Source of the DNA: an uncultured bacterium
Lineage (GTDB): Bacteria > Chlamydiota > Chlamydiia > Chlamydiales > SM23-39
DNA length: 64,000 nucleotides
Assembly: GCA_964424735.1 (NCBI GenBank)
Contig: CAYRJU010000006.1
Coordinates: 2,158 to 66,157 of the forward strand
Direction of reading: 5' to 3'
Numbering within the stretch: position 1 is the first letter of the stretch; each line of letters starts with the position of its first letter. Below are positions 10,785 to 31,513 of the stretch, piece after piece. Under the pieces are notes generated by a model that saw only the letters and a list, made by a program, of their open reading frames with translations, ran no database searches and was not told where the DNA came from. The position numbers and the translations under genes were made by a program.

Positions 10785-11546
10785 ATGACTGGCGCACAAT
10801 ATATCTGGATCAAAGCTAACGGGAATCCGGATCGTTCCATAACTTATCACGACAAAGACGGAAATAGCTTGATTCGCTATCTCGACCTAAAAGCGAAAAA
10901 TCCTCCGAGAGGCACTAAATCTTGGCGACATCAAAATCCAGGTAACGTCACCCATGGCGACTTTTCTAAACGTCATGGAGAAATTGGCTTTGCCTGTTAT
11001 CCACATCCCGACGATCCAAAGAAAAAACTTTGCTTCGCTATTTTCCCTGATTATGAAACTGGAAGAAAAGCCTTTGCGGCCCTATTAAAAACAGAAAGAT
11101 ATATTGATATTACTTTAAACCAATTTCCTCGCACTTATACTGGCATTCTCAAAGACGCTCTGCCCGATACCAAAGAAGTCATTGAGTATAGAAAAAATCT
11201 TCGCATTATTTCAAAATTCGACATGGAACGTAAAATCCGCTCTTTCAAAGGAGAGGAATATGAAAAGCTACTCGATGCCATTCAACGTTGCGAAGGCTGG
11301 TTCCCCGGCGACGAATCGTTTGAACCTGCAAAAGATCAGGTAGTTGGCGTAAAATTTCTAAAACACAAAGCAACGGAATTCTTAGTTCAATCAGCAGATG
11401 GTGCGAAAAAGTGGCTTACCCGAGCGCAAGCCATCGCGAGGGCAGAGACTCATAAACTCTTCGCAGTTGTAGTTCACGGACAGCATGGCATCTACCTACG
11501 CCCTTATCCACATCACCCCCGTTTCCATGATATAACTGTTCGCTAG
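10785..11546 (+). CDS. Hypothetical protein: N-terminal 'WRHQNPGN' motif domain plus DUF3892-like C-terminus
   Basis: 253 aa, preceded by a very AT-rich spacer. It contains 'SWRHQNPGNV...FAIFPDYETGRKAFAALLK'. The C-terminal 'WLTRAQAIARAE..LFAVVVHGQHGIYLRPY' resembles the DUF3892 pattern (inference). Confidence 0.4.
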   Translation: MTGAQYIWIKANGNPDRSITYHDKDGNSLIRYLDLKAKNPPRGTKSWRHQNPGNVTHGDFSKRHGEIGFACYPHPDDPKKKLCFAIFPDYETGRKAFAALLKTERYIDITLNQFPRTYTGILKDALPDTKEVIEYRKNLRIISKFDMERKIRSFKGEEYEKLLDAIQRCEGWFPGDESFEPAKDQVVGVKFLKHKATEFLVQSADGAKKWLTRAQAIARAETHKLFAVVVHGQHGIYLRPYPHHPRFHDITVR

Positions 11547-12622
11547 GATTGCGTAGGAGAAAGTTCTCGGGATTCTTTTTCGACTAATATCTTGTGGGTC
11601 TCTAGTGCATGTTTAATGTGTTTATCAAAATCTGACTCGAACAGATGGTCCTGTGCAATTCGATACTTTTCAAATTCACTTTCAGCGAAAGCCTTTGCCA
11701 CTTCCTTGCTCACCTTTCCTGGATTATTGAGAATATCCCTTTCATTAAACTGAAGAAAAGCATTTAGCTTTTCAGCCCAATCTTTCATGGTCATAGGAAT
11801 GTTTCGCAAAGCTCTATCTTCGGCGTAATCGAGATACATGGTTACAAACCGATCGAGCGATTTCAATTCCACTTCGGTCAGATAGTTTTTTGCAATGGTG
11901 ACGTCCGGTTTTAGGATTTTTCCATCTGGGGCATTTTTCCATGTGGTCAACCCCATTCTCTCTTTTTTACTATCTGCCCGCTCAACAATCAATTCAGCAG
12001 CGGTATGGCCGTGAATAGCAAAGTGAAGTTTATTTTGCACTTCTGCAAAAAAACTTTGCGTAACTTCGGCTTTGGGATCGTAATCCATGGCTGTGGCATA
12101 GATGTCTGCGATCTTTTGGTAAAACCTCCGCTCACTTGCCCGAATTTCTCGGATTTCTTCCAGCAGATAATCGAAATACGCTTTGTTGAAGAATGAGCCG
12201 TTTTTCAAACGCTCTTTGTCAAGCACATAACCACGAAGGGCAAAGTCCTTTAAGATACTCACAGCCCATTGTCTAAATTGGATGGCTCGAAGAGAATTAA
12301 CCCGAAAGCCGACAGCAATGATGGCATCGAGGTTATAAAACTCAATGCTTCTAGAAACCTCGCGGGTGCCTTCCTTTTGAACTATCCGGAAATTCCGGAC
12401 AGTTGTATCTTTGAGTATCTCTTTCTGGTCAAACAGGTTGAGTAAATGCTCATTGATGGTTTTAACTGAGACTTCAAATAATGCCCCCATCAACTTCTGT
12501 GTGAGCCAGACCGATTCCTCGGCTACCCGAACTTCAATGCTGTTTTCACCAGACTGTCCAGTAAAGATCAAAAATTCAGCAGTGCTATTGCGAATATTGG
12601 CTTTTTTTTCTTGTTCACCCAT
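11543..12622 (-). CDS. rhuM: RhuM-family virulence/Fic-associated protein
   Basis: 'AEFLIFTGQSGENSIEVRV..ESVWLTQKLMGALFEVSVKTINEHL' and 'FYNLDAIIAVGFRVNS..AIQFRQWA' are typical of the RhuM family. The ATG at 12622 avoids overlap with the upstream gene; the track start is 12655. Confidence 0.8.
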   Translation of the reverse strand: MGEQEKKANIRNSTAEFLIFTGQSGENSIEVRVAEESVWLTQKLMGALFEVSVKTINEHLLNLFDQKEILKDTTVRNFRIVQKEGTREVSRSIEFYNLDAIIAVGFRVNSLRAIQFRQWAVSILKDFALRGYVLDKERLKNGSFFNKAYFDYLLEEIREIRASERRFYQKIADIYATAMDYDPKAEVTQSFFAEVQNKLHFAIHGHTAAELIVERADSKKERMGLTTWKNAPDGKILKPDVTIAKNYLTEVELKSLDRFVTMYLDYAEDRALRNIPMTMKDWAEKLNAFLQFNERDILNNPGKVSKEVAKAFAESEFEKYRIAQDHLFESDFDKHIKHALETHKILVEKESRELSPTQS

Positions 12623-12636
12623 AAGTTCCTGCGATT

Positions 12637-13362
12637 TTAGAAGGCGAGTTCCCACTTCTGCTGCAGTTTTGTTAAGGACTTCTTTTTGCGAAGAGTGGAG
12701 AGGGCCTTATTGAAGGCGTCGAGGCTGCCTTTGGGCCCCACGAGATGGATCCCTCGAGAAGAAAGAGGGGTTGAGGCAATTTTCAATACCCCAGCATAGA
12801 GATCTAAGATGTAATTGACCGCCGGAATCTGATCTAGGAGCGCCGCTTCGATATCCCCCCTTGCCAGCGCGTCCAAAAGTTCTGGGATCGACGGATAGTG
12901 GCGAATGATGATGGATGGGTATTTGGCTAAGATGATCTCAGAAGAATCGTTCGTGAGAATCCCCACCAATTCCGCACCGAGTTGATCCAAAGAGCTCTTA
13001 TTCGAAGAATCAGAGACAATCAAAACCGGACCTAAATCGAGAAAATTTTCCGAAAAATCAAATTTTGCCAAGTGGTATTCATAGGGAGGAAGAGTCGTTA
13101 GAACTGCGTCGTACTTTCCATTTTGCATGCCGTCAAAGAGATTGTCGCTACTTGCCCGAATCAGCTCAAATCGCATCCCAGAGCTGCGAGCCATTTCTAA
13201 GAGAAAATCCTCCGTAAACCCATTGACATACGAAGTTTGGGGTCCAAAATCTTTCGGGTACCAATTGGGATCGACCCCAATGCGAAGCCTCGCGCGATCA
13301 AAGCTTCCAGAAGTACAGCCAAAGAAAATAAAAGCGAAGAGAATGGATCGCAAGAAATGCAT
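12637..13362 (-). CDS. Amino-acid ABC transporter substrate-binding lipoprotein (SBP family 3, ArtJ-like)
   Basis: Lipobox 'FIFFGCTS'. 'LRIGVDPNWYPKDF', 'GKYDAVLTTL' and 'ALARGDIEAALLD' fit the polar amino-acid SBP fold. Confidence 0.8.
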   Translation of the reverse strand: MHFLRSILFAFIFFGCTSGSFDRARLRIGVDPNWYPKDFGPQTSYVNGFTEDFLLEMARSSGMRFELIRASSDNLFDGMQNGKYDAVLTTLPPYEYHLAKFDFSENFLDLGPVLIVSDSSNKSSLDQLGAELVGILTNDSSEIILAKYPSIIIRHYPSIPELLDALARGDIEAALLDQIPAVNYILDLYAGVLKIASTPLSSRGIHLVGPKGSLDAFNKALSTLRKKKSLTKLQQKWELAF

Positions 13363-15377: not shown

Positions 15378-16421
15378 ATGAAAAATATCCTCTTAAAAAA
15401 TCTCGTTCGATTAGCCCGGTATTTCATTCCGAAACACCCGCAAAAAAACCACATTCTCGTCGTCGCTACAACAGCTCTTGGAGATACGCTTTGGGCCACT
15501 CCCGCAATTGAATCGATTCGGACCCATTTTCCCCACTGTTATCTCGCCGTTTTGACCTCTCCGATCGGCATGCAGGTGCTCAAAAATAACCCGCATATCG
15601 ATAAGCTCTTTCTCTTAAAAGAGCCCGTTTCCAAACATTTTTTTTCTCTTTGGAAAGAGCTCTATCAAGAACAATTCGATACGGTGCTCCTCTTTCACGC
15701 CTCGCAAAGACTCACCCTTCCCCTCTCAGCACTTCTCGGTGCGAGTCGTCTCATTGGGACTGCCGGCATCAACAAAGGGCTCGACTGTCTTCTCACACAC
15801 CCTCTTCCCAATCAAGCGCAGCACGAAATTGTCCGTAGACTCAAAATCATCGAAACGATCGGAATCAAACCCACTACCCAAAAACTCTCGATTTTTATCA
15901 ATGAAACATTACCGCCTCGATCGGAAGGGCCCTGGATCGCCCTCCATCCCGGCTCAAAAGACGCCTTTAGGCGTTGGCCCAAGGAAAAATTCATCGAGCT
16001 CGGCAAACGACTTAAAAGGGAACTCGGCTGCGAGATTCTCATTACGGGCACTAAAGAGGAAAAAAGTCTCATGGAAGAAATTGGCTCTCAAATACCAGGA
16101 GCTCATGTCGATCTACCCAATCGAGCTTTTAGAGAATTTGCAGCTCTTCTCAACCAGATGGATCTGCTCATCTCGAATGATACAGGCCCTGTTCATCTAG
16201 CCTGCGCGCTAGATAAACCGGTCGTCGCGATCTATGCCTCTACCGATCCAGCGCTTTGCGGCCCACACACAGCTAAAAAAGCCAAAGTCATTTCCCGAAG
16301 AGCTACCTGTGATCCCTGTCTAAAGCGCAAATGCCACCAACCCTTTTGCTTTTTGCAAATCGGAGTGGACGAAGTCTTTCAGGCCGCCCGCTCTTTGATC
16401 ATCAAAGATGGATCACACTGA
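15378..16421 (+). CDS. Glycosyltransferase family 9 (LPS heptosyltransferase-like)
   Basis: 'ILVVATTALGDTLWATPAIESIR', 'RWPKEKFIELGKRL' and 'ISNDTGPVHLACALDKPVVAIY' are GT9 hallmarks. Confidence 0.85.
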   Translation: MKNILLKNLVRLARYFIPKHPQKNHILVVATTALGDTLWATPAIESIRTHFPHCYLAVLTSPIGMQVLKNNPHIDKLFLLKEPVSKHFFSLWKELYQEQFDTVLLFHASQRLTLPLSALLGASRLIGTAGINKGLDCLLTHPLPNQAQHEIVRRLKIIETIGIKPTTQKLSIFINETLPPRSEGPWIALHPGSKDAFRRWPKEKFIELGKRLKRELGCEILITGTKEEKSLMEEIGSQIPGAHVDLPNRAFREFAALLNQMDLLISNDTGPVHLACALDKPVVAIYASTDPALCGPHTAKKAKVISRRATCDPCLKRKCHQPFCFLQIGVDEVFQAARSLIIKDGSH

Positions 16422-17466
16422 AAATACCCTCGTGATCGGAGAGCGCCTCTTGACGGTATTCGGAGGCCAGATAACCGGTTTCTACGAGAGTGCTCGTGAT
16501 TTTTTGGGCAGTTCCTTGCCAGAGGAGAGTATAGTCCAAATTCAAAGGAGGTGATTCTGGTTTTCCCACGAGATGCGCGCAAAAAGCATCTCCTCCCCAG
16601 CTTTTTCCAGTAAGGGATCCATCCTTGACAAAGCGAGATTGCCATCCCGAACTCTGATACTCTCTCTTCTCGAGATTGAGATCGCCTGTTAGGATGAGGC
16701 ATCGATCTCTCACCTTTTCCATTTTCTCAAGGACGATCTGCATCTGTTGATGCCTTGCTCTTTCCTCTTCTTCTGTCGGAGAGGTGGGAATTTCTGAGTG
16801 CTGCAAATGGGTCGAAAAAACGCGGGCAAAGGATTGGGAGCCCCCACATAGATCAAAACTCAACACTCCTTTTTGGCACCATTTCGTCCTTCCGACGAGC
16901 GTTTCTTGTGGGAAAGGATCAAAGGCAATCTGATCGATCTCGTATTTGCTCGCGACCATCATCCCCGAAGAAACTCCAAAACCCTGAGGTCCGACGTTAT
17001 AGACAAAATGAGTGTAGCCTGCCTGTTTGAGCCTTTCTTTGAGATAAAGGGCAGCTTTTAAATCAAAGAGTTCATAAAGGCAATTGACATCCGCCTTTTT
17101 TTCGATGATTTTTTGGGCAATCTGCTCGATGCGCTCTTTCCAAGGGGTAACGCCACCATCGGTGATTGCGTAACCACCCGCAACACAGCAAACATTCCAG
17201 GAAAAAAGGGTGAACTCTCGAGCCTTTGCAAAACCCTTTCCTATTTTTTCTATCAAAAAGGGATGCGCTTGCATCTGGGATGCCGCCCCCCGCAAAAGTG
17301 CTCCAGGCAGAGTGGTAAAAAGGGCAAGGGAGGCGAAAAAAAATGCCGAGAGCAAAAAAAAGATTTTTCTTGCCACTTGTTCAACGACTTGAGATTGAAT
17401 ATAGGACGCGTGGGCATGGCAAATGGGATCGGTGAGATCAGAGGCGAGATCAAAGAGAATTTCCAT
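16402..17466 (-). CDS. Membrane-anchored endonuclease/exonuclease/phosphatase (EEP) family protein, neutral-sphingomyelinase-like
   Basis: N-terminal hydrophobic segment 'IFFLLSAFFFASLALFTTLPGALL'. EEP blocks present: 'FTLFSWNV', 'ADVNCLYELFD', 'LILTGDLNLE', 'LDYTLL' and 'LSDHEGIFSVI'. Confidence 0.7.
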   Translation of the reverse strand: MEILFDLASDLTDPICHAHASYIQSQVVEQVARKIFFLLSAFFFASLALFTTLPGALLRGAASQMQAHPFLIEKIGKGFAKAREFTLFSWNVCCVAGGYAITDGGVTPWKERIEQIAQKIIEKKADVNCLYELFDLKAALYLKERLKQAGYTHFVYNVGPQGFGVSSGMMVASKYEIDQIAFDPFPQETLVGRTKWCQKGVLSFDLCGGSQSFARVFSTHLQHSEIPTSPTEEEERARHQQMQIVLEKMEKVRDRCLILTGDLNLEKREYQSSGWQSRFVKDGSLTGKSWGGDAFCAHLVGKPESPPLNLDYTLLWQGTAQKITSTLVETGYLASEYRQEALSDHEGIFSVIHL

Positions 17467-17507
17467 AGGGAAAGAGTATATGAACTCTTTCCCCAGGAAA
17501 CAATGGA

Positions 17508-18554
17508 TTAGATTTTTTGAGCGACGATATAGTGACTGGTCGAAACGAGCCTCAACCGATCGGCTTCAATAAAGGCTTCTCCTCCACGACAGAGCCTTTC
17601 GAAAAGAGTATTGAAGTGTTTGGGCAAAAGCTTTGCTCTTACGAGGAGATTGATCAATTTGCCGAGTCTCGTATAGAACTTATCGGCATTCTCGATCAGG
17701 GGCGCTTGCAGGCCATCTATGCTTGCATTTTCATTGATCAGCACTTTAAACCCTGCTTTTTCAAGCGCTTTTACATATTTATCCACCGTGGGATTGCCAA
17801 TGGCGCCAAGGAGCGGTTTGATCTGCTTCATCAAATGGCCGTGATAGGGATTTTTCGAATTGAACGCATCCAAGAGAACCCATTCCAAGCAGGCAAATCT
17901 CCCACCCCGTTTTAAGAGGCGATAGAGCTCTTTAAAAGTCTTATTCAAATCCTTGGAAAGGCTAAATACTTGCACTTCATAGATCGCATCGAATGACTCA
18001 TCGGGGAAAGGATAGGGGGCCTGATTGAGATCCCATTTTTGGAAATGGGTTGTTTGGGAAAGTCCATTTCCCTTCGCAAATTTTTCGGCTGATTCGAGTT
18101 GACCCGTATCGATATTCACCCCGGTGACATGGGCGCTCGTATGAGAGGCAGCGTGACTGGCAATTCGACCTCTCCCACAGCCCACATCCAAAACCCTAGA
18201 TTTTTGGCTCAAAGCTAAATCTTTCCACATTCTCCTCTCAAAAAGGGTCTGATTGCCAATGAGGCTCTTGGAAAGATCGATCGCCGGAGGGATGTACATC
18301 TTTTCCACTTGGCCAATGGCACACAGATGATTGAGGACACTGTAGTAATCGACAAGTTTTTGTTTGACCACTTGAGCATAGTCAAGCCCCATCGCCTGAA
18401 TCATGGCCGCCTCATCGGCCCAATCGTGGTCATAGATGATGTATGAATTTAAAAACGCATCCAATTTCTCTTTGGGTAAAGAATAGAGTTCGCGAAAAGA
18501 CCTCGCGATCGTCTTCAACCGATATCCCCAGAATTGGATCTTTGATGCTAACAT
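17508..18554 (-). CDS. Class I SAM-dependent methyltransferase, sterol C-24 methyltransferase (ERG6/SMT)-like including the C-terminal extension
   Basis: Motif I is 'VLDVGCGRGR'. 'GGRFACLEWVLLDAFNSKNPYHGHL...ALEKAGFKVL' runs parallel to ERG6 '[25 protein letters not shown]...ALKNCGFEVL'. The tail '...LVSTSHYIVAQK' resembles '...LFTPMMLFVARK'. The SMT region I (YEYGWG) is not conserved. Confidence 0.6.
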   Translation of the reverse strand: MLASKIQFWGYRLKTIARSFRELYSLPKEKLDAFLNSYIIYDHDWADEAAMIQAMGLDYAQVVKQKLVDYYSVLNHLCAIGQVEKMYIPPAIDLSKSLIGNQTLFERRMWKDLALSQKSRVLDVGCGRGRIASHAASHTSAHVTGVNIDTGQLESAEKFAKGNGLSQTTHFQKWDLNQAPYPFPDESFDAIYEVQVFSLSKDLNKTFKELYRLLKRGGRFACLEWVLLDAFNSKNPYHGHLMKQIKPLLGAIGNPTVDKYVKALEKAGFKVLINENASIDGLQAPLIENADKFYTRLGKLINLLVRAKLLPKHFNTLFERLCRGGEAFIEADRLRLVSTSHYIVAQKI

Positions 18555-18716
18555 TTCCGACTCCTTTGTTAGGGGACAATTCTATCCCCCCTTTGGTCGA
18601 ATATGTCGAGAGGTCGATTTTTTTTCAAAAAAATATTTGCATGTCGAAAGGATTTTTTAAAAAAACTAATCTTTACTAATTTCTCTATATTCATAATTAA
18701 TGTATAATTAACGGAA

Positions 18717-19964
18717 ATGTTTAATTTAACAAACAAAATAAATCTAACACCTTCTTGTGAAAAACTAGTTGCGACGACCTGCGCGCTTGGCGGTGCTGCA
18801 GCGCTCACCACCTCTATTTTAGCGGCAAAATCGGTCATTACCATAGGCGTAGCCTCTCAAATATTTCCTATCATTGGGCTCATCATGGGGATCGCTCTGA
18901 TGGCTTTGGGATGCTATCTACTCTATGAGGCCTGGCAAAATAGCCCAGTAACCCTACCGACGACAAATGAGCCGACAAATGAGAAAAAAACGATCGAGCT
19001 TCTCTCACCGCCCGCTCGCCTCCCCCCATTACAAAAGGAAGAATTACCCGAACAAACCACCCTAGAACCCGATCCGTTAGCACTTACGGGAACAGACGCA
19101 ATCGTAACCGCTACCAATCTATGTCGAGGAGTCGCTGCATACGCAGCGCCAAAACTTCTTCTCCCGATCGGAGTTGGCGCAGAAGTGGCCCATTATTTGA
19201 GCCTTCCCAAAGATGCCCATTGGCTTCGCAAAACCCTCTCTCTTCCAGGCCTCCCCTTCCTCTTGAGCTATTGCCATCCAGGAATCCCTCTCCTCTTCCA
19301 ACTAGGTTCTCTCTATCATCTTGCATCACACACGGCGCCAAAAGTGTGGACTGCATGGAAAAAATGTACAGAAACGCCTGGAAAAGCGGCTCTCGCAGGC
19401 GCTGTCCACGCGTTCAATTTGATATCGAGTGGAGCTCTTACGGCAAAAAGCGCATGGGATCAATGGTCTCAACTGACTCCAGAACCTCCAGAACTTCCAG
19501 AACCTCCAGAACCCTGTGTTAATCCTGAAGAAATGATGTCATTAAAAGAATTGGCTACAAAATACCCTCAATGTCACCGGACCGTAGTAGCCAGAGCTTC
19601 TTCACCACTTGGACCGGACATGCGCGCACATTTCTTCTTTTGCAATCAAGAAAATGTATTCCCTCCTACGCCGGGAATAAAGGTCATTAGAGGAATCTCT
19701 CTCAATACCCAAGGCCCTGACACACTCTGTGGGCCCAATACACAGCTCTGTTTTCAGTGTAAGGGGGGAGAAGAATTGTCTTTGAAAACGCTGAATAGGA
19801 TCCATATGGATCAGGCATTAGAGGATGCCTCCCTTCCCAAAGAGACTAAAGAGCAAATTTTTAATGCGCTTCAATCTAAGGCAGATCAGCTCTCGGAGTA
19901 TCGATTTGCAACGAAGGTGTATGAGTACATCGATCAAGCCACAAGAGCTGCCACAACTTCCTGA
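18717..19964 (+). CDS. Inc-like membrane protein / putative T3SS substrate with PEPPEL repeat
   Basis: Long bilobed hydrophobic stretch 'TSILAAKSVITIGVASQIFPIIGLIMGIALMALGCYLLY' near the N-terminus. Pro-rich linker, 'TPEPPELPEPPEPC' repeat and a Cys-containing C-domain. AT-rich upstream region. Confidence 0.5.
   Translation: MFNLTNKINLTPSCEKLVATTCALGGAAALTTSILAAKSVITIGVASQIFPIIGLIMGIALMALGCYLLYEAWQNSPVTLPTTNEPTNEKKTIELLSPPARLPPLQKEELPEQTTLEPDPLALTGTDAIVTATNLCRGVAAYAAPKLLLPIGVGAEVAHYLSLPKDAHWLRKTLSLPGLPFLLSYCHPGIPLLFQLGSLYHLASHTAPKVWTAWKKCTETPGKAALAGAVHAFNLISSGALTAKSAWDQWSQLTPEPPELPEPPEPCVNPEEMMSLKELATKYPQCHRTVVARASSPLGPDMRAHFFFCNQENVFPPTPGIKVIRGISLNTQGPDTLCGPNTQLCFQCKGGEELSLKTLNRIHMDQALEDASLPKETKEQIFNALQSKADQLSEYRFATKVYEYIDQATRAATTS
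19479..19514 (+). repeat. 4 x 9-bp in-frame tandem repeat (ccagaacyt) encoding PEP/PEL units
   Basis: The sequence reads 'ccagaacct ccagaactt ccagaacct ccagaaccc', directly visible inside the 18717-19964 CDS. Confidence 0.9.
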
Positions 19965-19982
19965 AAATTAAAAATTTAACAA

Positions 19983-20046
19983 CGACTAAAATACGATATA
20001 TCGTAAAATAGTCGCGACTAAAATACGAACTATCGTAAAATGGTCG
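19983..20046. promoter_or_regulatory. Two tandem 32-bp quasi-palindromic repeats abutting the start codon of the DUF4143 ATPase gene (candidate operator)
   Basis: Unit 1 (19983-20014) is 'cgactaaaatacgatatatcgtaaaatagtcg'. Unit 2 (20015-20046) is 'cgactaaaatacgaactatcgtaaaatggtcg'. They match at 29 of 32 positions. Each unit has 'cgacta...tagtcg' outer arms and a 'tacgatatatcgta' core palindrome. The ATG lies at 20048. Confidence 0.6.
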
Positions 20047-20047
20047 T

Positions 20048-21253
20048 ATGAAGCGGATTTATCAGGAGTTATTGGCGCGTCACCTTTCCCAGCTCCGCCA
20101 AATGATTTTTTTGATGGGGCCAAGACAAGTGGGAAAAACCACTTTGAGCCGAGAAGTTGCAGAACAGAGCTCAAATCACTTCTATTTCAACTGGGATAAT
20201 CCAACTGAAAGGCTCTTATTCATTGAAGGGCCCCATGCGATTGCAAAACAGGTAGGTTTGGATACATTAAGCGAAGAGACGCCCATCTTAATCTTCGATG
20301 AAATCCACAAATTTGGAAAATGGAAAAACTTTCTCAAAGGTTTTTTTGACGCCTACGAAAAAAAAGCCAAAATCATCGTTACAGGAAGCGCTCGTCTCAA
20401 CATTTACAAAAAAGGAGGCGATAGCCTCATGGGGCGCTATTTCTATTACCGCATTCATCCTCTTTCGGTAGCTGAGATCGTCTCCCCTGTTCTGATCGAT
20501 CGGGAAATCCGAAATCCCACTCCTATTTCAGATGAAGATTGGAAGGCCCTTTTAGAACATGGCGGCTTTCCAGAGCCTTTTCTCCAGCGCTCCAAAGAAT
20601 TTTCCCGCCGCCTACGCGCGATTCGAAAAGATCAGCTTTTTCGAGAAGATATCCGGGACGGAACGAGAATCCAGGAACTTGCCCAGCTCGAACTCTTAGC
20701 CGATCTACTGAAGGCCCAAGCGGCTCAATCGATGGACTATCTCTCTTTATCCAAGAAAGTGGGAGTTGCGATCGACACCATTCGGCGCTGGATCGAAACT
20801 CTCAAATCTTTTTACTATTGCTTTGCCATTCAGCCCTGGTCCAAAAATATCAGTCGTTCGCTCCTTAAAGAACCTAAAATGTATCTTTGGGACTGGTCTT
20901 TGATCGAGGAGGAAGGGCACAGAAACGAAAATATCGTTGCCAGTCACCTGCTCAAAGCTGTTCACTTCTGGAATGATCGAGGCATGGGCGAATATGGCCT
21001 TTATTACCTCCGAACAAAAGACAAACTCGAAGTCGATTTTGTCGTGACGAAAGAGAAAAAACCCTGGTTTCTCGTCGAAGTCAAAACGAAGGCCAAAGGG
21101 CTCTCTTCTGCTCTCTTTCATTTTCAAGAAGAAACAAAAGCTCCTCATGCCTTTCAAGTCGCTTTCGATCTTCCTTTTGTGAAAAGAGACTGTTTTGAAG
21201 AAAAAGGTCCTCTCCTCGTTCCTGCACGAACGTTTCTCTCTCAATTAGTTTAA
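20048..21253 (+). CDS. AAA-family ATPase with C-terminal DUF4143 (PD-(D/E)xK-like) domain
   Basis: Walker A 'GPRQVGKTTL' and Walker B 'ILIFDEIHK' are present. The C-terminal 'LEVDFVV....WFLVEVK' is nuclease-fold-like. Confidence 0.8.
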   Translation: MKRIYQELLARHLSQLRQMIFLMGPRQVGKTTLSREVAEQSSNHFYFNWDNPTERLLFIEGPHAIAKQVGLDTLSEETPILIFDEIHKFGKWKNFLKGFFDAYEKKAKIIVTGSARLNIYKKGGDSLMGRYFYYRIHPLSVAEIVSPVLIDREIRNPTPISDEDWKALLEHGGFPEPFLQRSKEFSRRLRAIRKDQLFREDIRDGTRIQELAQLELLADLLKAQAAQSMDYLSLSKKVGVAIDTIRRWIETLKSFYYCFAIQPWSKNISRSLLKEPKMYLWDWSLIEEEGHRNENIVASHLLKAVHFWNDRGMGEYGLYYLRTKDKLEVDFVVTKEKKPWFLVEVKTKAKGLSSALFHFQEETKAPHAFQVAFDLPFVKRDCFEEKGPLLVPARTFLSQLV

Positions 21254-22216
21254 ACTTAGGGTGAGGAGATCTCTGCTGGTATCTTCAGTAAATGTAGTCC
21301 GAACAGCCCCAAATTCTTCTGCGAGAGTCTGAGCCATGGCATTGGCTCCAGGATTTTGCCGGCTAACCGTCGCCCTCAGTTCCGTGAAAGGCACGTAGGC
21401 CCAATCAATCTCGCTCTTGTTATTTAGATGCACAGTGGTCCCAGATATAGCTGCCCTTTGCTTTTCTTCGACATCTACAGGGACGAGATAGTTTCGCTCT
21501 TTCAATGCTCTCGCATAGATCACGGTCGCCCGAACGACTTCTGTACCAATGCCCGTTCTACCCTGACTGCCCTGAACCCCTCCTTGAGTGGCAAAAGAGG
21601 CATTCCAATAACCTGGATCCATGATAACGGCCATCTCAGACCATCCTTGAGTAGGCCCTCCGTAATCTCCATGACCCACAGCCGTGTGCCCGATGACTTG
21701 GTTAGTTTCCCGGTCCACCACTGCCAGAGCTGAGAAGGGATGGAACTTCCAACGTTCCAACCAACCATTGAAACGACCGGATATATTGGCGACGGGCCCT
21801 CCTCGATAATGCTGCATGGTAATAGCGCTAGCGAAGAGCTTTTGATAGGCCGGCAGATCTGCAGACTGGATGGGACGGATGAGGAGCCTTTTGGTCTGAA
21901 TTTCAGGACGGTGGCCATGCCAAGTGATGGAAATTTGAGAACCCTCGATTTGGTTAAACGCCTTTTGATGCGTGACTGAGTAATTGAGAAGGAGCGCACC
22001 GAGAGCAGCAGCAACCAAAGTAATGGGAAGTAGCAAAATGGCAAATGCCGCAACAAGGGTTCGTTTGAGAAGAGAGTCTGCGGGGAGTTCATGCACTCCT
22101 TTTTCGATGCGATACGCCCTTCCAAAAAGGGTCGAAAGTGGAAGGAGAAGCGCCTGGCCGATCCGATGTGTACAATCTGGGGATTGCATTTCAATATGGG
22201 ACAAAAATCGACTCAT
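21245..22216 (-). CDS. Membrane-anchored GNAT (RimJ/RimL-like) N-acetyltransferase-domain protein
   Basis: Hydrophobic segment 'LVAAFAILLLPITLVAAALGALLL'. It is followed by 'RLLIRPIQSADLPAYQKLF' and '..NQVIGHTAVGH..', typical of the Acetyltransf_3 domain. Confidence 0.6.
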   Translation of the reverse strand: MSRFLSHIEMQSPDCTHRIGQALLLPLSTLFGRAYRIEKGVHELPADSLLKRTLVAAFAILLLPITLVAAALGALLLNYSVTHQKAFNQIEGSQISITWHGHRPEIQTKRLLIRPIQSADLPAYQKLFASAITMQHYRGGPVANISGRFNGWLERWKFHPFSALAVVDRETNQVIGHTAVGHGDYGGPTQGWSEMAVIMDPGYWNASFATQGGVQGSQGRTGIGTEVVRATVIYARALKERNYLVPVDVEEKQRAAISGTTVHLNNKSEIDWAYVPFTELRATVSRQNPGANAMAQTLAEEFGAVRTTFTEDTSRDLLTLSLN

Positions 22217-25840: not shown

Positions 25841-26623
25841 ATGTTGAAATACCTCTTCGTTTTGTTTTTTTGCCTCTCCCCCCTAATGGCACAAAATGCT
25901 CCTCAGCCCACAGCCGTTAAAACAGCTGCCGTTCCCACGGAAGTCCCTTCTGCAGCCAATCCTTCCATGGTCACAAAACTCGCTATTCTAGCGGGCCTAT
26001 CTCTCTTGCCGTTTGCAGTGATGCTCCTCACCTCCTACATGAAGATCATCGTCGTCCTATCTTTACTGCGTAATGCTCTTGGAGTGCAGCAGACGCCCCC
26101 GAACCAGGTGCTGAATGGCATTGCACTGCTCATCACCATTTACGTGATGTTTCCGACAGGGCTTCTCATGTACAAAGCCGCTGAAGGGACGATGAATGCC
26201 AATCCTCCGAAAGATGTGCTCTCTAATGAATCGGCCGCCTTTGTCGTCCGTGTGATCGATGAGGCCAAAGAGCCACTTCGCGAATTTCTTCTCCGCAACG
26301 TCTCGCCCAAACACACGCAGAGTTTTTACAATTTGGCGACCCGCATCTTTCCAGAGCCCTATAAATCCCAGCTCACCCAGAAAGATTTCATCGTCGTGAT
26401 CCCCTCTTTCATCACGAGCCAATTGAAAACGGCTTTTGAGATCGGCGTACTCATCTATCTGCCCTTTTTCGTGATCGATCTCGTCGTCTCAAACATCTTG
26501 CTCGCCATGGGGATGATGATGCTCTCTCCGCTCACCATCGCCTTGCCGATCAAACTCCTTCTCCTCGTCATGATCGATGGATGGACGGTACTCATTCAGG
26601 GACTTGCACTCTCATTTAGGTAA
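25841..26623 (+). CDS. sctR: T3SS export apparatus protein SctR (CdsR; FliP/YscR family)
   Basis: 'SYMKIIVVLSLLRNALGVQQTPPNQVLNGIALLIT' and 'FEIGVLIYLPFFVIDLVVSNILLAMGMMMLSP' are FliP-family signatures. Confidence 0.92.
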   Translation: MLKYLFVLFFCLSPLMAQNAPQPTAVKTAAVPTEVPSAANPSMVTKLAILAGLSLLPFAVMLLTSYMKIIVVLSLLRNALGVQQTPPNQVLNGIALLITIYVMFPTGLLMYKAAEGTMNANPPKDVLSNESAAFVVRVIDEAKEPLREFLLRNVSPKHTQSFYNLATRIFPEPYKSQLTQKDFIVVIPSFITSQLKTAFEIGVLIYLPFFVIDLVVSNILLAMGMMMLSPLTIALPIKLLLLVMIDGWTVLIQGLALSFR

Positions 26624-26626
26624 GAT

Positions 26627-26899
26627 ATGATCACAAACGAGATTTACAGTCTCAGCTATCAGGCGCTCATCCTCATCTTGATCCTCTCTGGTCCTCCGAT
26701 CATCATCAGCACTATTTTGGGACTCATCGTGGCGATCTTTCAGGCGGCGACCCAAATTCAGGAGCAGACGCTCTCTTTCACTGTCAAACTCTTTGCCGTA
26801 ATCTTTACGATCCTCTTTCTCGGGGGCTGGCTCGGAGCAACCGTCCTGCAATACGCGAATACCATTTTCACGACGATCGCAAGGGCGGGAGCTGGATGA
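26627..26899 (+). CDS. sctS: T3SS export apparatus protein SctS (CdsS; FliQ/YscS family)
   Basis: 90 aa with two TM segments. 'GLIVAIFQAATQIQEQTLSF' is FliQ-like. Confidence 0.9.
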   Translation: MITNEIYSLSYQALILILILSGPPIIISTILGLIVAIFQAATQIQEQTLSFTVKLFAVIFTILFLGGWLGATVLQYANTIFTTIARAGAG

Positions 26900-27756
26900 A
26901 TTCTCTTTCAGCCACCGACAACTATGCATCTCTTCTCCTCTCCCTTCCAAACCTCCAGCCCTACACTGTTCTTTCCCTCTTTTTTCTCACCTTGGGAAGA
27001 ATTCTGCCCATCATTGCCCTCGCTCCTTTTCTAGGCTCGAAAAATGTTCCCACGGCGATCCGGATGATGTTTGGAATCACTCTCGTTGCGATTTTCCTCC
27101 CCCAAAATCTCCTCTTGGCAAGAGCCGAGCTTCCGTTCAATCTCACCTTCATCTTCCTCTTGACCAAAGAGCTCATTGTGGGGTTTGTGATCGGTTTTTT
27201 TGCAGCGATTCCCTTTTATATCGCCCAGATGGCAGGAAGCCTCATTGACCACCAGAGGGGTTCTGCGGCCCTTCAGGTGACCGATCCGACGACCCAAACG
27301 CAGACAGGCCCTATCGGCCTTCTCTACAACTACGTGCTGATCGCTCTCTTTTTCAGCCTGGGAGGGCCTTTCATCTTCCTCGATGGCGTGGCAACTTCTT
27401 ACCAGCTCATTCCGGTCGATGGGCTCATGAGCCCAACCCTTTTTACTTGGCAAACGCCTCTTGCCAAAACCATCATCAACCTCTTTTCCACCGTCATGAA
27501 CCTCTCGATCCAGCTTTCGGCGCCTGCGCTCATCGGCATTCTGCTCACTGATATGTTCCTCGGCATCGCAAACCGCCTAGCGCCTCAAGTGCAAATCGTC
27601 TTTCTCGGCATCTCGCTCAAATCTTGGGTGGGGATCGCTCTTCTGACGGCTGCCTGGGTCCTCATCGTCCGCGTCATGAGCGAAGAGGCGATTTCTTGGA
27701 CGAAATCGCTCAAAGCGCTTATCCAACAAGTCGGCCACTTCTACATGGAAAAATAA
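26896..27756 (+). CDS. sctT: T3SS export apparatus protein SctT (CdsT; FliR/YscT family)
   Basis: 286 aa polytopic protein. It overlaps the sctS stop by 4 nt. 'FFLTLGRILPIIALAPFLGSKNVP' is a FliR-like N-terminus. Confidence 0.88.
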   Translation: MNSLSATDNYASLLLSLPNLQPYTVLSLFFLTLGRILPIIALAPFLGSKNVPTAIRMMFGITLVAIFLPQNLLLARAELPFNLTFIFLLTKELIVGFVIGFFAAIPFYIAQMAGSLIDHQRGSAALQVTDPTTQTQTGPIGLLYNYVLIALFFSLGGPFIFLDGVATSYQLIPVDGLMSPTLFTWQTPLAKTIINLFSTVMNLSIQLSAPALIGILLTDMFLGIANRLAPQVQIVFLGISLKSWVGIALLTAAWVLIVRVMSEEAISWTKSLKALIQQVGHFYMEK

Positions 27757-27777
27757 TAGGTAAAAGAGAAAATCACC

Positions 27778-28413
27778 ATGATGGCACAGCAATACTGGAA
27801 TGAAATAGGGTCGCAAAAAGTATTTGAAGATCCTCTTTATGTAGATAAACTCTCTCTTTTTCTATCACCAACGGATCAAATCCTTGAATACGGGTGTGGC
27901 TATGGCCGAATGATGCGCATCTTAAAATCAGAAGGATATCAAAACCTGATTGGCTTTGACTTTGCTCCAAATATGATCACAAGAGGGCACAGAGAAAATC
28001 CAGATCTTGATTTAAGGTTGTTGGAAAAGCCAGGTATCATCCCTTGTAAAGACGAATTTGCCGATGCCGTTGTGATGTCGACCGTGCTGTGCTGCATCAC
28101 CGATGATCAAAAACTGGAAAAATTAATCGCTGAAATTGAAAGAGTCCTCAAAAAGAGAGGAGTATTGTACATTACCGATTTTCTCATCTGTGAGCATCCC
28201 CGATATCAAGCAAGATACGCGGCTGGCTTACAAGACTTTGGGATCTGGGGAATCTATACGACGAATGAAGCATTAACTGTCCGACATTTCACAACTAAAG
28301 CAATCATGGAAATGTTAAAACGTTTTGACATTCAGTGGTTTGAGCAGTTTGACTTTAAAACAATGAATCAAAATCCAGCTCGCACTTTTCACTGTATAGC
28401 TAAGAAAGCCTGA
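27778..28413 (+). CDS. Class I SAM-dependent methyltransferase
   Basis: Motif I 'ILEYGCGYGRM' and post-I 'GFDFAPNMI' are present, along with 'VLKKRGVLYITDF'. Confidence 0.75.
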   Translation: MMAQQYWNEIGSQKVFEDPLYVDKLSLFLSPTDQILEYGCGYGRMMRILKSEGYQNLIGFDFAPNMITRGHRENPDLDLRLLEKPGIIPCKDEFADAVVMSTVLCCITDDQKLEKLIAEIERVLKKRGVLYITDFLICEHPRYQARYAAGLQDFGIWGIYTTNEALTVRHFTTKAIMEMLKRFDIQWFEQFDFKTMNQNPARTFHCIAKKA

Positions 28414-28502
28414 CAAGACGCACATTTGGATAAAAAACTTGAAAAATTTGGGAAAGCTGCTATATTTTTTGCTTTTCATTTTCTTATAAGGAGAAGAAGA
28501 GT

Positions 28503-29045
28503 ATGGCTGCTAGAATATCGCTTGCATGCGAAAACTATTTTGCAGGATTTCGCGATTTATCAAATTTCAATAACAATGATTGCTGCACGAATATTTTAGG
28601 GGTTTTAAAAGTAGTTTCTTATTTCACACTCGTAGTGCCTTTGTTTTTTGGACTGGTTTACTGCATTTCTTCGCTAGCTGGAAGAGTCACTATACCAACA
28701 ACTTTATCCTCTCAGGATGAGAGGGTATCTTCTGCTAGCCAAAGAACTTTTGGTCAAAGTGTTGAGGAACAGTTAGAAACTATGTTCTCTTCTTCGGTTA
28801 AAACCCAACACCTATTTACCATTGATGGAAGCAAAATTGGAATTATTTTTAATCCAACAGGTGAAGCTTTGCGTGTTGGATTTATGACTGTAACGGATCC
28901 GGTAGTTTTGGTATCTGATAGAGCAATTCCCGATCCAATAGCTCAACGAATTACTGCAAAAATTCCTGCAAATCGCACCCATTCTACTCTAAGCATTGGC
29001 AGGATCAATGGCCGGACTCCTTTCCAAGCCCTGGGATTTGAATAA
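28503..29045 (+). CDS. Hypothetical membrane protein
   Basis: 180 aa with one strong TM segment ('VVSYFTLVVPLFFGLVYCISSLAG'). AT-richer codon usage than the neighbouring core genes (judged by eye). Confidence 0.45.
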   Translation: MAARISLACENYFAGFRDLSNFNNNDCCTNILGVLKVVSYFTLVVPLFFGLVYCISSLAGRVTIPTTLSSQDERVSSASQRTFGQSVEEQLETMFSSSVKTQHLFTIDGSKIGIIFNPTGEALRVGFMTVTDPVVLVSDRAIPDPIAQRITAKIPANRTHSTLSIGRINGRTPFQALGFE

Positions 29046-29049
29046 TCAT

Positions 29050-30021
29050 ATGAATAAAGAAATGGATATTCCTGAAGAAGTGAGGCGTTGGAATTGGGGG
29101 GCATTTTTACTTTGTCCCATTTGGTGTATCCGGCATGGGATTTGGCAAGGCTTATTACTTTTGATTCCTATTTTTGGCTTGTTTGTTCCCTTTTGGCTTG
29201 GAGCTACGGGCAATCGAAAGGCTTGGGCTAAGAAGGGGCATGAATCTAAGGAAAGTTTTCTAAAGCGCCAAAAATTTTGGGGTTTTGCAGGACTAGGTAT
29301 TTGGATAGGCGCTCTACTTACTTCCTTAGGAACGCTTTCTTATTCCCTTAACTACTCAGATGGAATGAAGATGGGTTTAGCAACCGCTAATACTAATAAA
29401 CGTCTGACTGAGTACTTCGGCAAAAACATCCGCAAACGTTCTTTTTTTAATGGTTCTTACAATTATGTGATCAGCCCTGAGCCCTCAACCCTCACGGTAG
29501 CCTTTGATGCGGTTGGATCCAGAAACGAGGGAAACATTCATTTTCAGTGGGAGAAAAGAGGGAAAGATTGGGTTACAACCGAAATTACTTTTGTAGATGC
29601 AGAAGGATCCGCTCATCAACTGGTAGATATGGCAACACTTGCAAGCTCTTTTTTACCAAGAGCGCCCTATAACAAAAATAGATTAGAGACTGCTTTAAGT
29701 CATATGATCCAAGAAAAAGATGGTTTCTTAATTTTATCTCGATCAAAAGAGAAAAATGATTTCATACAAACTGCTGCCGAACTTTTGGACAATGGAGAAG
29801 TTGTTTTTTCTGTAGTTTATAGTGATGGCTACACAAAATGGAATAAAAGCCTTTATCAATCCAAAATCCCACAAAGTAAAGACGAAGTCATCAAGCTCTT
29901 TACTCTCTACGCCAGAGGAGATGATTCACACATTCACTTGATTGAATGGAATAAATTAACATCCATTCAACCTACGGAAGGATCTTCGGCCTTTTTTATT
30001 TTTGGAGAGCCCGCAATATAA
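29050..30021 (+). CDS. Hypothetical membrane protein (RWNWGAF motif N-domain)
   Basis: The ATG at 29050 is preferred over the track start at 28996, which overlaps the previous gene. 'RRWNWGAFLLCPIWCIRHGIWQG' is a small-membrane-domain motif (DUF2628-like, from memory). A soluble C-terminal region follows. Confidence 0.45.
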   Translation: MNKEMDIPEEVRRWNWGAFLLCPIWCIRHGIWQGLLLLIPIFGLFVPFWLGATGNRKAWAKKGHESKESFLKRQKFWGFAGLGIWIGALLTSLGTLSYSLNYSDGMKMGLATANTNKRLTEYFGKNIRKRSFFNGSYNYVISPEPSTLTVAFDAVGSRNEGNIHFQWEKRGKDWVTTEITFVDAEGSAHQLVDMATLASSFLPRAPYNKNRLETALSHMIQEKDGFLILSRSKEKNDFIQTAAELLDNGEVVFSVVYSDGYTKWNKSLYQSKIPQSKDEVIKLFTLYARGDDSHIHLIEWNKLTSIQPTEGSSAFFIFGEPAI

Positions 30022-30148: not shown

Positions 30149-31513
30149 ATGGCAGCAGTATCTGTAGTCGTTTCCCTACCTACGATCCAATCCATGACAA
30201 AATGGGCGCGAGAAGCTCACGAAGCCATCACGGGTCAAGAAGGACTCATAAGAGACAAAGCGCAGCGAGCTTTAGAAACTCTTTATTCACAAGGGATGCG
30301 AGTAGTGAGAGCAGAAGTAGAAGGGACTCCTTTACCGGAATTTGTAAAAGACACGACCGTCTATGCAGTTTTGCAAGACCTGGATACACTCGTATCCTTT
30401 GAGGGAATTCAACATGAAACGTCTTTGCAACGGACCTTGAGCAAGGTGTATCGGCTCTTTACCGATTTGACCTGGGCGCAATGTTGGAGACAGGTGCAAA
30501 GACCTGTCTGGACAGAGACTCGCGATCGAATCATTGCAAATGCGGATCGGATGTTAAAGGTAGCTACAAGCGAAGAAATGAGGTTCGAGTATCGGTGTGC
30601 AGAGCAGGGAGCAAAATGCTTGACACCCGCAGATAGTGAATGGCTGCCCTTTGCAGAAAGCGCTTTCAAAATGCTGAAAGGAGCCGCCGAGAAGAGTCCA
30701 GGCGATGTATATGAGGGTTTGAAAGGGGTCATGAAGTGGTTTGTCAAAAATCTGGTCCACGATTGGTATATGAAAACTTGGGATGTTCGCTGGTTAGTAG
30801 CGCAGGCCAATACAGTAGAAGAATTTCAGACAAAAACAATCCAAAAGGTGTTTACTCAATACATTGAAGAAGGAATGGATCGAGGGAACGAATATGCGCA
30901 AGGGATTGTCATGATTTTCATGGATGCTCTGAGAAGACAAGAAGCGACAACCGAACTCAAGGATCGCCTGTTTTTTGGAAATGGCGCCTTTCCCGGGATG
31001 CTCTCCCTTCTTGAAACAGAAAAAGTGGGGACTTTAAATGAATTTTTACACCACCCCATTGGGGTTTGGGTAGATCGCTTTAAAAAGGCACGCCGCTTAA
31101 GCATGGAATTTCTCACAGAACTCGCTGCTACACAGCCAAGATATCGTCAGAAAAGCATAGCGGCGCTAAAATCCCGACTGGATTATTTAACCCCTCAAAC
31201 AAGACCCAGGTATCGACAAGAAAAACTCCAAAATCAACAAGCACTTTTCCAATTGCAAGATCAAATACAAGACCTCGCAAGAAGAGAAGAAGAGCTTTTG
31301 AATGAGTCTATCGACTTAAACGCACGGCAAGGAGCCACAGACGTAACGGCCGATCTTGAAAGAGTGAACAAAGAATTGCAAAAAGTTGGAACTCAAAAAG
31401 ATCAAATGCAAAAGATGGCTCAAATGGCTCAAGACTTTGAAACTGGGGATGAAGAAGAGGTCAAACTCCTAAAAGCAGCTTTACAAAAGTGTGGGAATCA
31501 AGCCAAGCTATAA
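30149..31513 (+). CDS. Hypothetical helical / coiled-coil protein (candidate effector)
   Basis: 454 aa with no TM segment. The C-terminal 130 aa are heptad-like and rich in Q/E/K ('LQNQQALFQLQDQIQDLARREEELLNE'). Confidence 0.45.
   Translation: MAAVSVVVSLPTIQSMTKWAREAHEAITGQEGLIRDKAQRALETLYSQGMRVVRAEVEGTPLPEFVKDTTVYAVLQDLDTLVSFEGIQHETSLQRTLSKVYRLFTDLTWAQCWRQVQRPVWTETRDRIIANADRMLKVATSEEMRFEYRCAEQGAKCLTPADSEWLPFAESAFKMLKGAAEKSPGDVYEGLKGVMKWFVKNLVHDWYMKTWDVRWLVAQANTVEEFQTKTIQKVFTQYIEEGMDRGNEYAQGIVMIFMDALRRQEATTELKDRLFFGNGAFPGMLSLLETEKVGTLNEFLHHPIGVWVDRFKKARRLSMEFLTELAATQPRYRQKSIAALKSRLDYLTPQTRPRYRQEKLQNQQALFQLQDQIQDLARREEELLNESIDLNARQGATDVTADLERVNKELQKVGTQKDQMQKMAQMAQDFETGDEEEVKLLKAALQKCGNQAKL

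Follow-up and report, generated by a model that had tools for sequence, protein, structure and literature searches.

Sterol C-24 methyltransferases (SMTs) share 25 residues that are conserved across all functional SMTs (Brown & Welander, bioRxiv 10.64898/2025.12.19.695621). One chlamydial SMT, chosen by the presence of both Pfam domains and E <= 1e-50 to ERG6, was shown by Brown et al. (2023, PMC10070321) to alkylate desmosterol, giving products up to 24-isopropyl sterols. In this work we compared with the SMTs a predicted class-I S-adenosylmethionine (SAM) methyltransferase (MT; 348 aa, 17508..18554, minus strand) encoded in a 64-kb stretch of DNA from an uncultured member of the Chlamydiota (contig CAYRJU010000006.1; the whole stretch is called the window below). 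Its neighbour encodes a neutral-sphingomyelinase-like phosphodiesterase of the endonuclease/exonuclease/phosphatase (EEP) superfamily (EEP; 354 aa, 16402..17466, minus strand). A preliminary description had given these as two co-oriented open reading frames (ORFs) 41 bp apart, and the coordinates agree (intergenic gap 17467-17507). Both are genuine genes, since full-length homologues at E < 1e-100 number in the hundreds for each. We concluded that the MT-EEP pair is a lineage-specific juxtaposition and not a dedicated lipid-remodelling module, because the two genes are neighbours in only one small clade (MT identity at least 76%). Both proteins belong to large families already in the databases, and that of the MT represents a distinct variant of the SMT type.

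Comparison of the methyltransferase with sterol C-24 methyltransferases

The MT has 1326 database homologues, the best 120 of which are 60-84% identical over the full length. Its Pfam and NCBIfam matches are to generic class-I SAM methyltransferase models only; the Sterol_MT_C domain (PF08498) was not detected in the MT even at E <= 10 and is present in 11 of 60 distant full-length relatives. A profile of the MT family was searched against 1.8 billion representative proteins. About 120 clusters sharing the motif 'EKMYIPP' (here the EKMYIPP family) were found at E-values of 1e-155 to 1e-33, and the genuine SMTs, with YEYGWGxSFH and DVGCGVGGP, rank directly after them from E ~1e-32. In hhalign the MT family matched the SMT profile with a probability of 100% and E = 4.8e-52 over MT residues 95-348, a span that begins immediately after Region I and takes in the SAM core and the entire C-terminal region. 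The earlier view that the MT resembles SMTs beyond the SAM fold is borne out by this alignment, and the motifs quoted for it are present (CLEWVLLDAFNSKNPYHGHL from residue 222 and the C-terminus '...HYIVAQKI'). Besides the class-I SAM fold and the shared architecture, the MT is collinear with ERG6 from ERG6 Y74 to the C-terminal 'VAxK' strand, and the 'EW..D....NP.H' segment and the C-terminal helices are common to both. The family blocks YDHDW, DYYxVLNHLCxxGxVEKMYIPP, GCGRGR, Q195, GLQAPLI and C-terminal ...VAQK are all found in the MT, which has full-length identity of at least 44% to family members from Chlamydiota and Legionellales.

Sequence matches of the MT to solved structures are confined to the SAM core. 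The PDB holds no SMT structure; therefore a fold search places the MT only among TleD, GPP-MT, RebM and PMT-type enzymes. The PDB neighbours of the AlphaFold2 (AF2) model (predicted local distance difference test, pLDDT, 81) were AtmM/RebM, TleD, SpnF, MitM, the geranyl pyrophosphate (GPP) C-methyltransferase, SDMT and PfPMT. Two terpenoid C=C methyltransferases, TleD and GPP C-MT, rank with the closest solved structures but share only 15-24% identity with the MT, within the SAM core only. Terpenoid and triterpene C-methyltransferases fall in the same class-I branch as the MT and, like SMTs, add the methyl group to a C=C bond in a prenyl chain. One fungal EKMYIPP member has been named automatically 'Squalene methyltransferase 1', and by this automatic name the Botryococcus squalene/botryococcene methyltransferases may be MT-like.

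The 25 SMT residues were read from an alignment of ERG6 as the ruler, nine genuine SMTs recovered here and 40 EKMYIPP family members (the ERG6 sequence used was checked at 28 published positions). The MT retains 11 of the 25 (in ERG6 numbering Y74, G84, D125, G127, G129, G147, Q154, D189, G217, G268 and L341) and replaces 14 (T78N, W85Q, G86V, F89M, H90Y, F91I, G132R, P133I, E195Q, W286L, G333H, G352D, F357V and P359T). Region I of SMTs, 84-GWGxxFHF-91, is GQVEKMYI from G81 in the MT, with G84 the sole residue kept, and the position of ERG6 Y81 is C78, so that YEYGWGxxFHF of the SMTs stands against C..GQVEKMYI of the MT. The preliminary description had already remarked that Region I is not conserved and that the substrate may differ, which this replacement upholds. 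In Region II (DxGxGxxGP) the MT keeps D123, G125 and G127, and has R130 and I131 in place of G132 and P133 (GP132-133 to R[IV]); judged from these residues, SAM binding is likely retained and the SMT-specific GP lost. G217 of Region IV is kept, E195 of Region III is Q195, and W286 is L286, with about 23 residues deleted after the W286 position. From the C-terminal set G333, L341, G352, F357 and P359 the MT keeps L341 only.

The replacements are conserved within the family: M86 and Y87 in 40/40 members, C78 in 35/40, Q195 in 34/40 and L286 in 36/40. Because the replacement residues are near-invariant, the EKMYIPP family appears to have a different conserved active site and not a decayed SMT site. 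We considered whether 'YDHDW' (MT residues 41-45) could be a displaced Region I 'YEYGW' and rejected the idea, because ERG6 Y74-F91 aligns with MT Y71-I88, which keeps a consistent distance to the SAM motif and has YDHDW 30 residues before it.

Whole-protein comparisons gave the same division. Bacterial SMTs were defined by Brown et al. (2023) as BLASTP matches to S. cerevisiae ERG6 with E <= 1e-50 and at least 30% identity. True SMTs matched ERG6 at 36-55% identity and E <= 1e-69, and EKMYIPP family members at 25-33% and E-values of 1e-17 to 1e-32. The MT itself gave 31.8% identity over 198 aa with E = 8.5e-26 (small database), weaker than that E-value limit. A bootstrapped neighbour-joining (NJ) tree separated the SMTs from the EKMYIPP family with 100% support. 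The chlamydial SMT already published aligns collinearly with ERG6, always offset by 38, and it and the window MT belong to different protein families. The MT family is an uncharacterised sister family of the SMTs. The description of the MT as an ERG6/SMT-like enzyme stands in that its nearest relatives are SMTs; it does not extend to the 14 replaced residues, Sterol_MT_C or the ERG6 BLASTP score. Hundreds of chlamydial, Legionella and fungal proteins are automatically labelled 'sterol 24-C-methyltransferase' without the residues common to functional SMTs (JGI gives this automatic label to MT homologues), and such mislabelling can inflate counts of 'bacterial SMTs', which is relevant to the interpretation of sterane biomarkers.

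The distribution of the family was examined at 67 MT loci from GTDB species-representative genomes, collected by a pattern-based scan that does not prove absence elsewhere. Most of the loci are in metagenome-assembled genomes (MAGs) labelled Chlamydiae, Parachlamydiales, Rhabdochlamydiaceae or Simkaniaceae or, more loosely, 'Verrucomicrobia' or 'uncultured bacterium', and there is no named cultured chlamydial species among the 67. Four loci belong to Legionellales (L. nautarum, L. maceachernii, a Tatlockia MAG and a Legionellales MAG; 44-50% identity), and more distant bacterial members lie on gene-dense Gram-negative contigs. In eukaryotes the family is widespread in Pezizomycotina (Ophiostoma, at 46% identity to the window MT, Sporothrix, Colletotrichum and Penicillium), including dozens of Aspergillus species (e.g., A. 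nidulans AN1614), and it is found in the amoebozoan Mastigamoeba balamuthi and in MMETSP protist transcriptomes, marine protists included. The eukaryotic members carry N-terminal extensions or transmembrane (TM) helices, the fungal extension being 40-80 aa. A. fumigatus Smt1 (AFUB_066290), the sole ERG6-like paralogue of that species, is dispensable, its deletion gave no phenotype and its overexpression does not rescue erg6 repression (PMC10441335). Smt1 is probably an EKMYIPP family member; the Aspergillus members are ~28% identical to ERG6 by BLASTP, versus 31% reported for Smt1 (PMC10441335). An SMT-sister family with a swapped substrate region is thus common to two unrelated amoeba-associated bacterial lineages, fungi and protists. 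We regard this patchy distribution as the most interesting aspect of the family, whose substrate would reveal a methylated lipid or metabolite that nobody is seeking.

In the NJ tree the window MT falls inside a shallow, coherent chlamydial cluster and joins its nearest relatives with 100% bootstrap support. The deep nodes mostly have less than 40% support, too little to give the direction of transfer between domains. Recent horizontal transfer of the MT into the window genome was rejected on the flat GC content together with the shallow chlamydial cluster; GC at the MT/EEP locus is unremarkable in the profile of the window. The suggestion that the pair was probably acquired horizontally is therefore not supported for this genome.

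Several chlamydial MAGs carry two EKMYIPP MT copies on different contigs (loci L019/L040, L029/L036, L050/L057, L014/L034 and L021/L044). The SMT-carrying MAG of Brown et al. also has SMTs described as '1 of 2' and '2 of 2', which are of a different family from EKMYIPP. For one EKMYIPP protein (P0539, MDP2434421.1) the deposited source is an 'archaeon' MAG, and several loci of chlamydial type carry Verrucomicrobia or Acidobacteria labels; mistakes of binning or taxonomy in the public MAGs are the probable cause.

The EEP protein and the neutral sphingomyelinases

The EEP protein has 444 database homologues (47-64% identity for the best 120 of the 444) and matches Pfam Exo_endo_phos (PF03372) at E = 6e-12. 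When the EEP family profile was compared with the PDB, the seven best matches were all sphingomyelinases (SMases), at E-values of 2e-7 to 2e-5: SmcL at 1.9e-7, then beta-toxin and B. cereus SMase, and nSMase2 at 1.6e-5. CCR4-type nucleases (1e-3) and TDP2 (8e-3) followed later. In a Foldseek search with the AF2 model (pLDDT 88.7) the best matches were B. cereus SMase (1.5e-15), SmcL, Streptomyces SMase C, beta-toxin and human nSMase1, with TDP2 interleaved at similar E-values. The SMases (B. cereus SMase, SmcL, S. aureus beta-toxin and human SMPD2/SMPD3) have the EEP fold and the full catalytic set that is seen in the EEP protein, at only 18-20% identity to it.

That catalytic set (N91, E132, H220, D262, N264, D344 and H345) is invariant in 26 diverse family members, in accord with the preliminary description, which had found all EEP/nSMase blocks present. 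The motifs align one to one with those of SmcL and beta-toxin, and we take the residues to be the equivalents of B. cereus SMase Asn, Glu53, His151, Asp195, Asn197, Asp295 and His296. An N-terminal 'LTDPxC' motif is invariant in the same 26 members. The NCBIfam sphingomyelinase model TIGR03395 gave 22 bits against a cut-off of 248. On present sequence evidence we would call the EEP protein SMase-like rather than a demonstrated SMase.

The mode of membrane attachment also differs. The EEP protein has an N-terminal TM segment plus LTDPxC, bacterial SMases have a hydrophobic beta-hairpin, and SMPD2 has C-terminal TM helices. EEP has one hydrophobic helix (residues 31-58), preceded by a net charge of -3 and followed by one of +3. 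Inclusion membrane (Inc) proteins have a bilobed hydrophobic domain of ~40-60 aa made of two TM helices and a short loop. The EEP anchor is accordingly predicted to be a single signal-anchor and not an Inc-type bilobed domain; the N-terminal anchor that had been proposed exists as the hydrophobic segment 31-58, with a single TM in place of the Inc-like form. Among the matches listed, the EEP family is confined to Chlamydiota MAGs. It offers a chlamydia-wide candidate phospholipid or sphingolipid phosphodiesterase, TM-anchored and nSMase-like, that could be assayed easily. A tandem EEP duplication was seen in one Chlamydiia genome (L073, 3787-6125), where the products of two adjacent Exo_endo_phos genes measure 376 and 374 aa.

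Linkage of the two genes and their possible functions

Among the 67 MT loci an EEP gene adjoins the MT gene at two only (L002 and L003; MT identity 84-85%), and at ~60 loci no EEP gene was found within 6 kb of the MT. The same GNAT-MT-EEP-GT9 block recurs at a further locus, L077, where MT identity is 76%. In L078 (72% identity) the MT gene lies among mraW/ftsI/murE genes and the EEP gene is absent, and at L034 an EEP paralogue of 38% identity is located 1.7 kb from the MT. The MT has no conserved neighbours, the best neighbour being present at 8 of the 67 loci. Four EEP loci in other chlamydiae showed no MT nearby and no shared neighbours. The notion of a conserved sterol and sphingomyelin module is not supported by these counts, the two genes being adjacent only in L002, L003 and L077 and apart in ~60 genomes. 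The locus itself is ordinary, its gene adjacency a local chance event in one lineage.

A probable, though by no means assured, explanation is that two independently conserved chlamydial enzymes became neighbours in one Parachlamydiales-type lineage, both acting on lipids without being obligatorily coupled. The MT is predicted to be an SMT-superfamily methyltransferase that depends on SAM, with its substrate pocket rebuilt and the SMT-type C-terminal lid retained. It would use SAM to methylate a hydrophobic lipid, probably an olefinic or prenyl-type one; such a substrate is suggested because the relatives SMT, TleD and GPP-MT methylate C=C bonds and the eukaryotic homologues are membrane-anchored. 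The substrate would be bound unlike sterols in SMTs and is most likely not a Δ24-sterol. EEP is predicted to be a Mg2+-dependent, TM-anchored phosphodiesterase that falls in the neutral-sphingomyelinase branch of its superfamily; at its anchoring membrane it may remove the phosphodiester headgroup of a sphingo- or lyso-phospholipid. The two enzymes need not serve the same pathway.

Several points weigh against this explanation. Both substrate classes would be carried over from relatives at 18-30% identity, and Foldseek does not separate SMase from TDP2 for EEP. The probable link between Smt1 and the EKMYIPP family comes from species distribution and identity levels; AN1614 and the other identifiers of family members do not occur in the Smt1 paper. 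Because the replaced MT pocket is still hydrophobic, a sterol held there in a different pose is conceivable, and we give it a small chance; sterol modification by chlamydiae has a precedent (Brown et al., 2023, PMC10070321). Relatives with MT identity as low as 76% retain the GNAT-MT-EEP block, and L034 shows another, loose association of MT and EEP, so the two may have some functional link within this clade.

The preliminary description amounted to a horizontally acquired two-enzyme module in which the MT methylates a host sterol and a secreted, membrane-anchored EEP cleaves host sphingomyelin at the inclusion membrane. The SMT homology running through the MT C-terminus, the nSMase-like catalytic set of EEP, the terminator-free gap with a single promoter-like site upstream, a type III secretion system (T3SS) apparatus encoded in the window, the action of the published chlamydial SMT on sterols and the block retained to 76% MT identity would all fit such a module. 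We nevertheless consider it very unlikely: the MT is without 14 of the 25 SMT residues, five of the six Region I motif residues among them, and Y81 and E195 are replaced as well; the genes are apart in ~60 genomes; composition is normal and the MT looks vertically inherited within the chlamydial cluster; the EEP family is chlamydia-specific among the matches listed, is 18-20% identical to SMases and has a single TM instead of an Inc-type anchor; and the window holds no further sterol or sphingolipid genes. A version independent of EEP, in which the MT would genuinely methylate sterol side chains through a remodelled site (e.g., on amoebal, fungal or host sterols unlike the ERG6 substrates), agrees with the SMTs being its nearest characterised relatives, with the occurrence of the family in sterol-dependent intracellular bacteria and sterol-making eukaryotes, with the JGI annotation and with pocket replacements that stay hydrophobic. 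This too is unlikely, since the Region I residues except G84, together with E195 and W286, are invariant in all functional SMTs tested and all replaced in the MT, overexpressed Aspergillus Smt1 fails to rescue erg6 repression, the JGI annotation is automatic and the EKMYIPP family falls below the bacterial-SMT thresholds.

It is distinctly unlikely that neither enzyme acts on lipids, with the MT working on a soluble small molecule or natural product and EEP being a nuclease, a TDP2-like phosphodiesterase of nucleic acids or a phosphatase. Sugar and natural-product O-methyltransferases (AtmM, RebM and MitM) are indeed among the top structure matches of the MT, the fold search with EEP mixes TDP2 in among the SMases, and the NCBIfam sphingomyelinase score lies far under its cut-off. 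However, the EEP profile favours SMases (2e-7) over CCR4 (1e-3) and TDP2 (8e-3), EEP and the eukaryotic MT homologues are TM-anchored, and the MT profile is closest to the lipid-acting SMT family and not to O-methyltransferases. A broader proposal makes the EKMYIPP protein a lipid C-methyltransferase spread by gene transfer between domains (amoebae, fungi, Chlamydiota and Legionellales) that, in this lineage and with the TM-anchored GNAT and EEP proteins, remodels lipids at the host-pathogen membrane. We think there is little prospect of this being right, and the substrates it would call for, a host-derived sterol precursor, a triterpenoid, a polyprenyl or a sphingoid olefin, are candidates of the same low standing.

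Locus layout and neighbouring genes

The 41-bp gap between MT and EEP was negative in a terminator scan. A perfect 9-bp inverted repeat with an N6 spacer, GGAAAGAGT-tcatat-ACTCTTTCC (17469..17492, minus strand, read from the sequence), stops 2 nt 5' of the EEP start codon and covers the expected EEP ribosome-binding region. No T-run follows the repeat, which could be a translational hairpin or an operator. A sigma-70-like promoter match (18600..18628, minus strand; promoter scan, 9/12 consensus positions) lies just 5' of the MT start; it is weak and the only one found on the minus strand, versus 3.2 expected by chance. Co-transcription of MT and EEP is plausible, because there is no terminator in the gap and the single sigma-70-like match is upstream of the MT.

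The GT9 heptosyltransferase-like gene (15378..16421, plus strand; Pfam Glyco_transf_9, 1e-28) is convergent with the EEP gene and overlaps its 3' end by 20 bp; it holds the same relative position in L002, L003 and L077. In those three loci the GNAT gene immediately precedes the MT. The window copy, which encodes a TM-anchored GNAT acetyltransferase (21245..22216, minus strand; Pfam Acetyltransf_3, TM residues 48-81), is displaced from the MT by a ~2.7-kb insertion (18717..21253, plus strand) that is absent from the other three. The insertion consists of an Inc-like 415-aa ORF (18717-19964, plus strand), with a bilobed hydrophobic stretch at approximately residues 17-73 and no Pfam match, and an ATPase gene (20048-21253, plus strand) with Pfam AAA_14 and DUF4143 matches. 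It is lineage-specific, and the Inc-like gene lies outside the conserved block. An Inc-like gene divergently upstream had been noted before; the bilobed ORF at 18717..19964(+) is there as described, but as part of this insertion.

Elsewhere the window is an ordinary chlamydial chromosome (FtsW, glycogen phosphorylase, SctJ/SctR/SctT of the T3SS, shikimate genes and permeases), and no additional sterol or sphingolipid genes were found within its 64 kb. Just after SctR/SctT, at 26000-30000, GC falls from 0.50 to 0.39 and GC skew moves from -0.18 to +0.06; the two large ORFs that follow the shift (28996-30021 and 30149-31513) have no Pfam matches. Copies of the AAA_14/DUF4143 ATPase that are 81-83% identical to the window gene are located within 1-3.5 kb of the MT in L039 (3603-4109) and L048 (10466-11668). 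These are unrelated Rhabdochlamydia-type MAGs whose MTs are 59-60% identical. Because the ATPase copies in unrelated MAGs are much more alike than the MTs near them, the ATPase looks mobile among chlamydiae and seems to have landed close to this MT on three occasions. A RhuM-family 'virulence protein' gene (11543-12655, minus strand; Pfam E = 9e-113) sits between a solute-binding protein gene and an ORF without a Pfam match. The RhuM and AAA_14 genes suggest that the region carries mobile or defence-type cargo.

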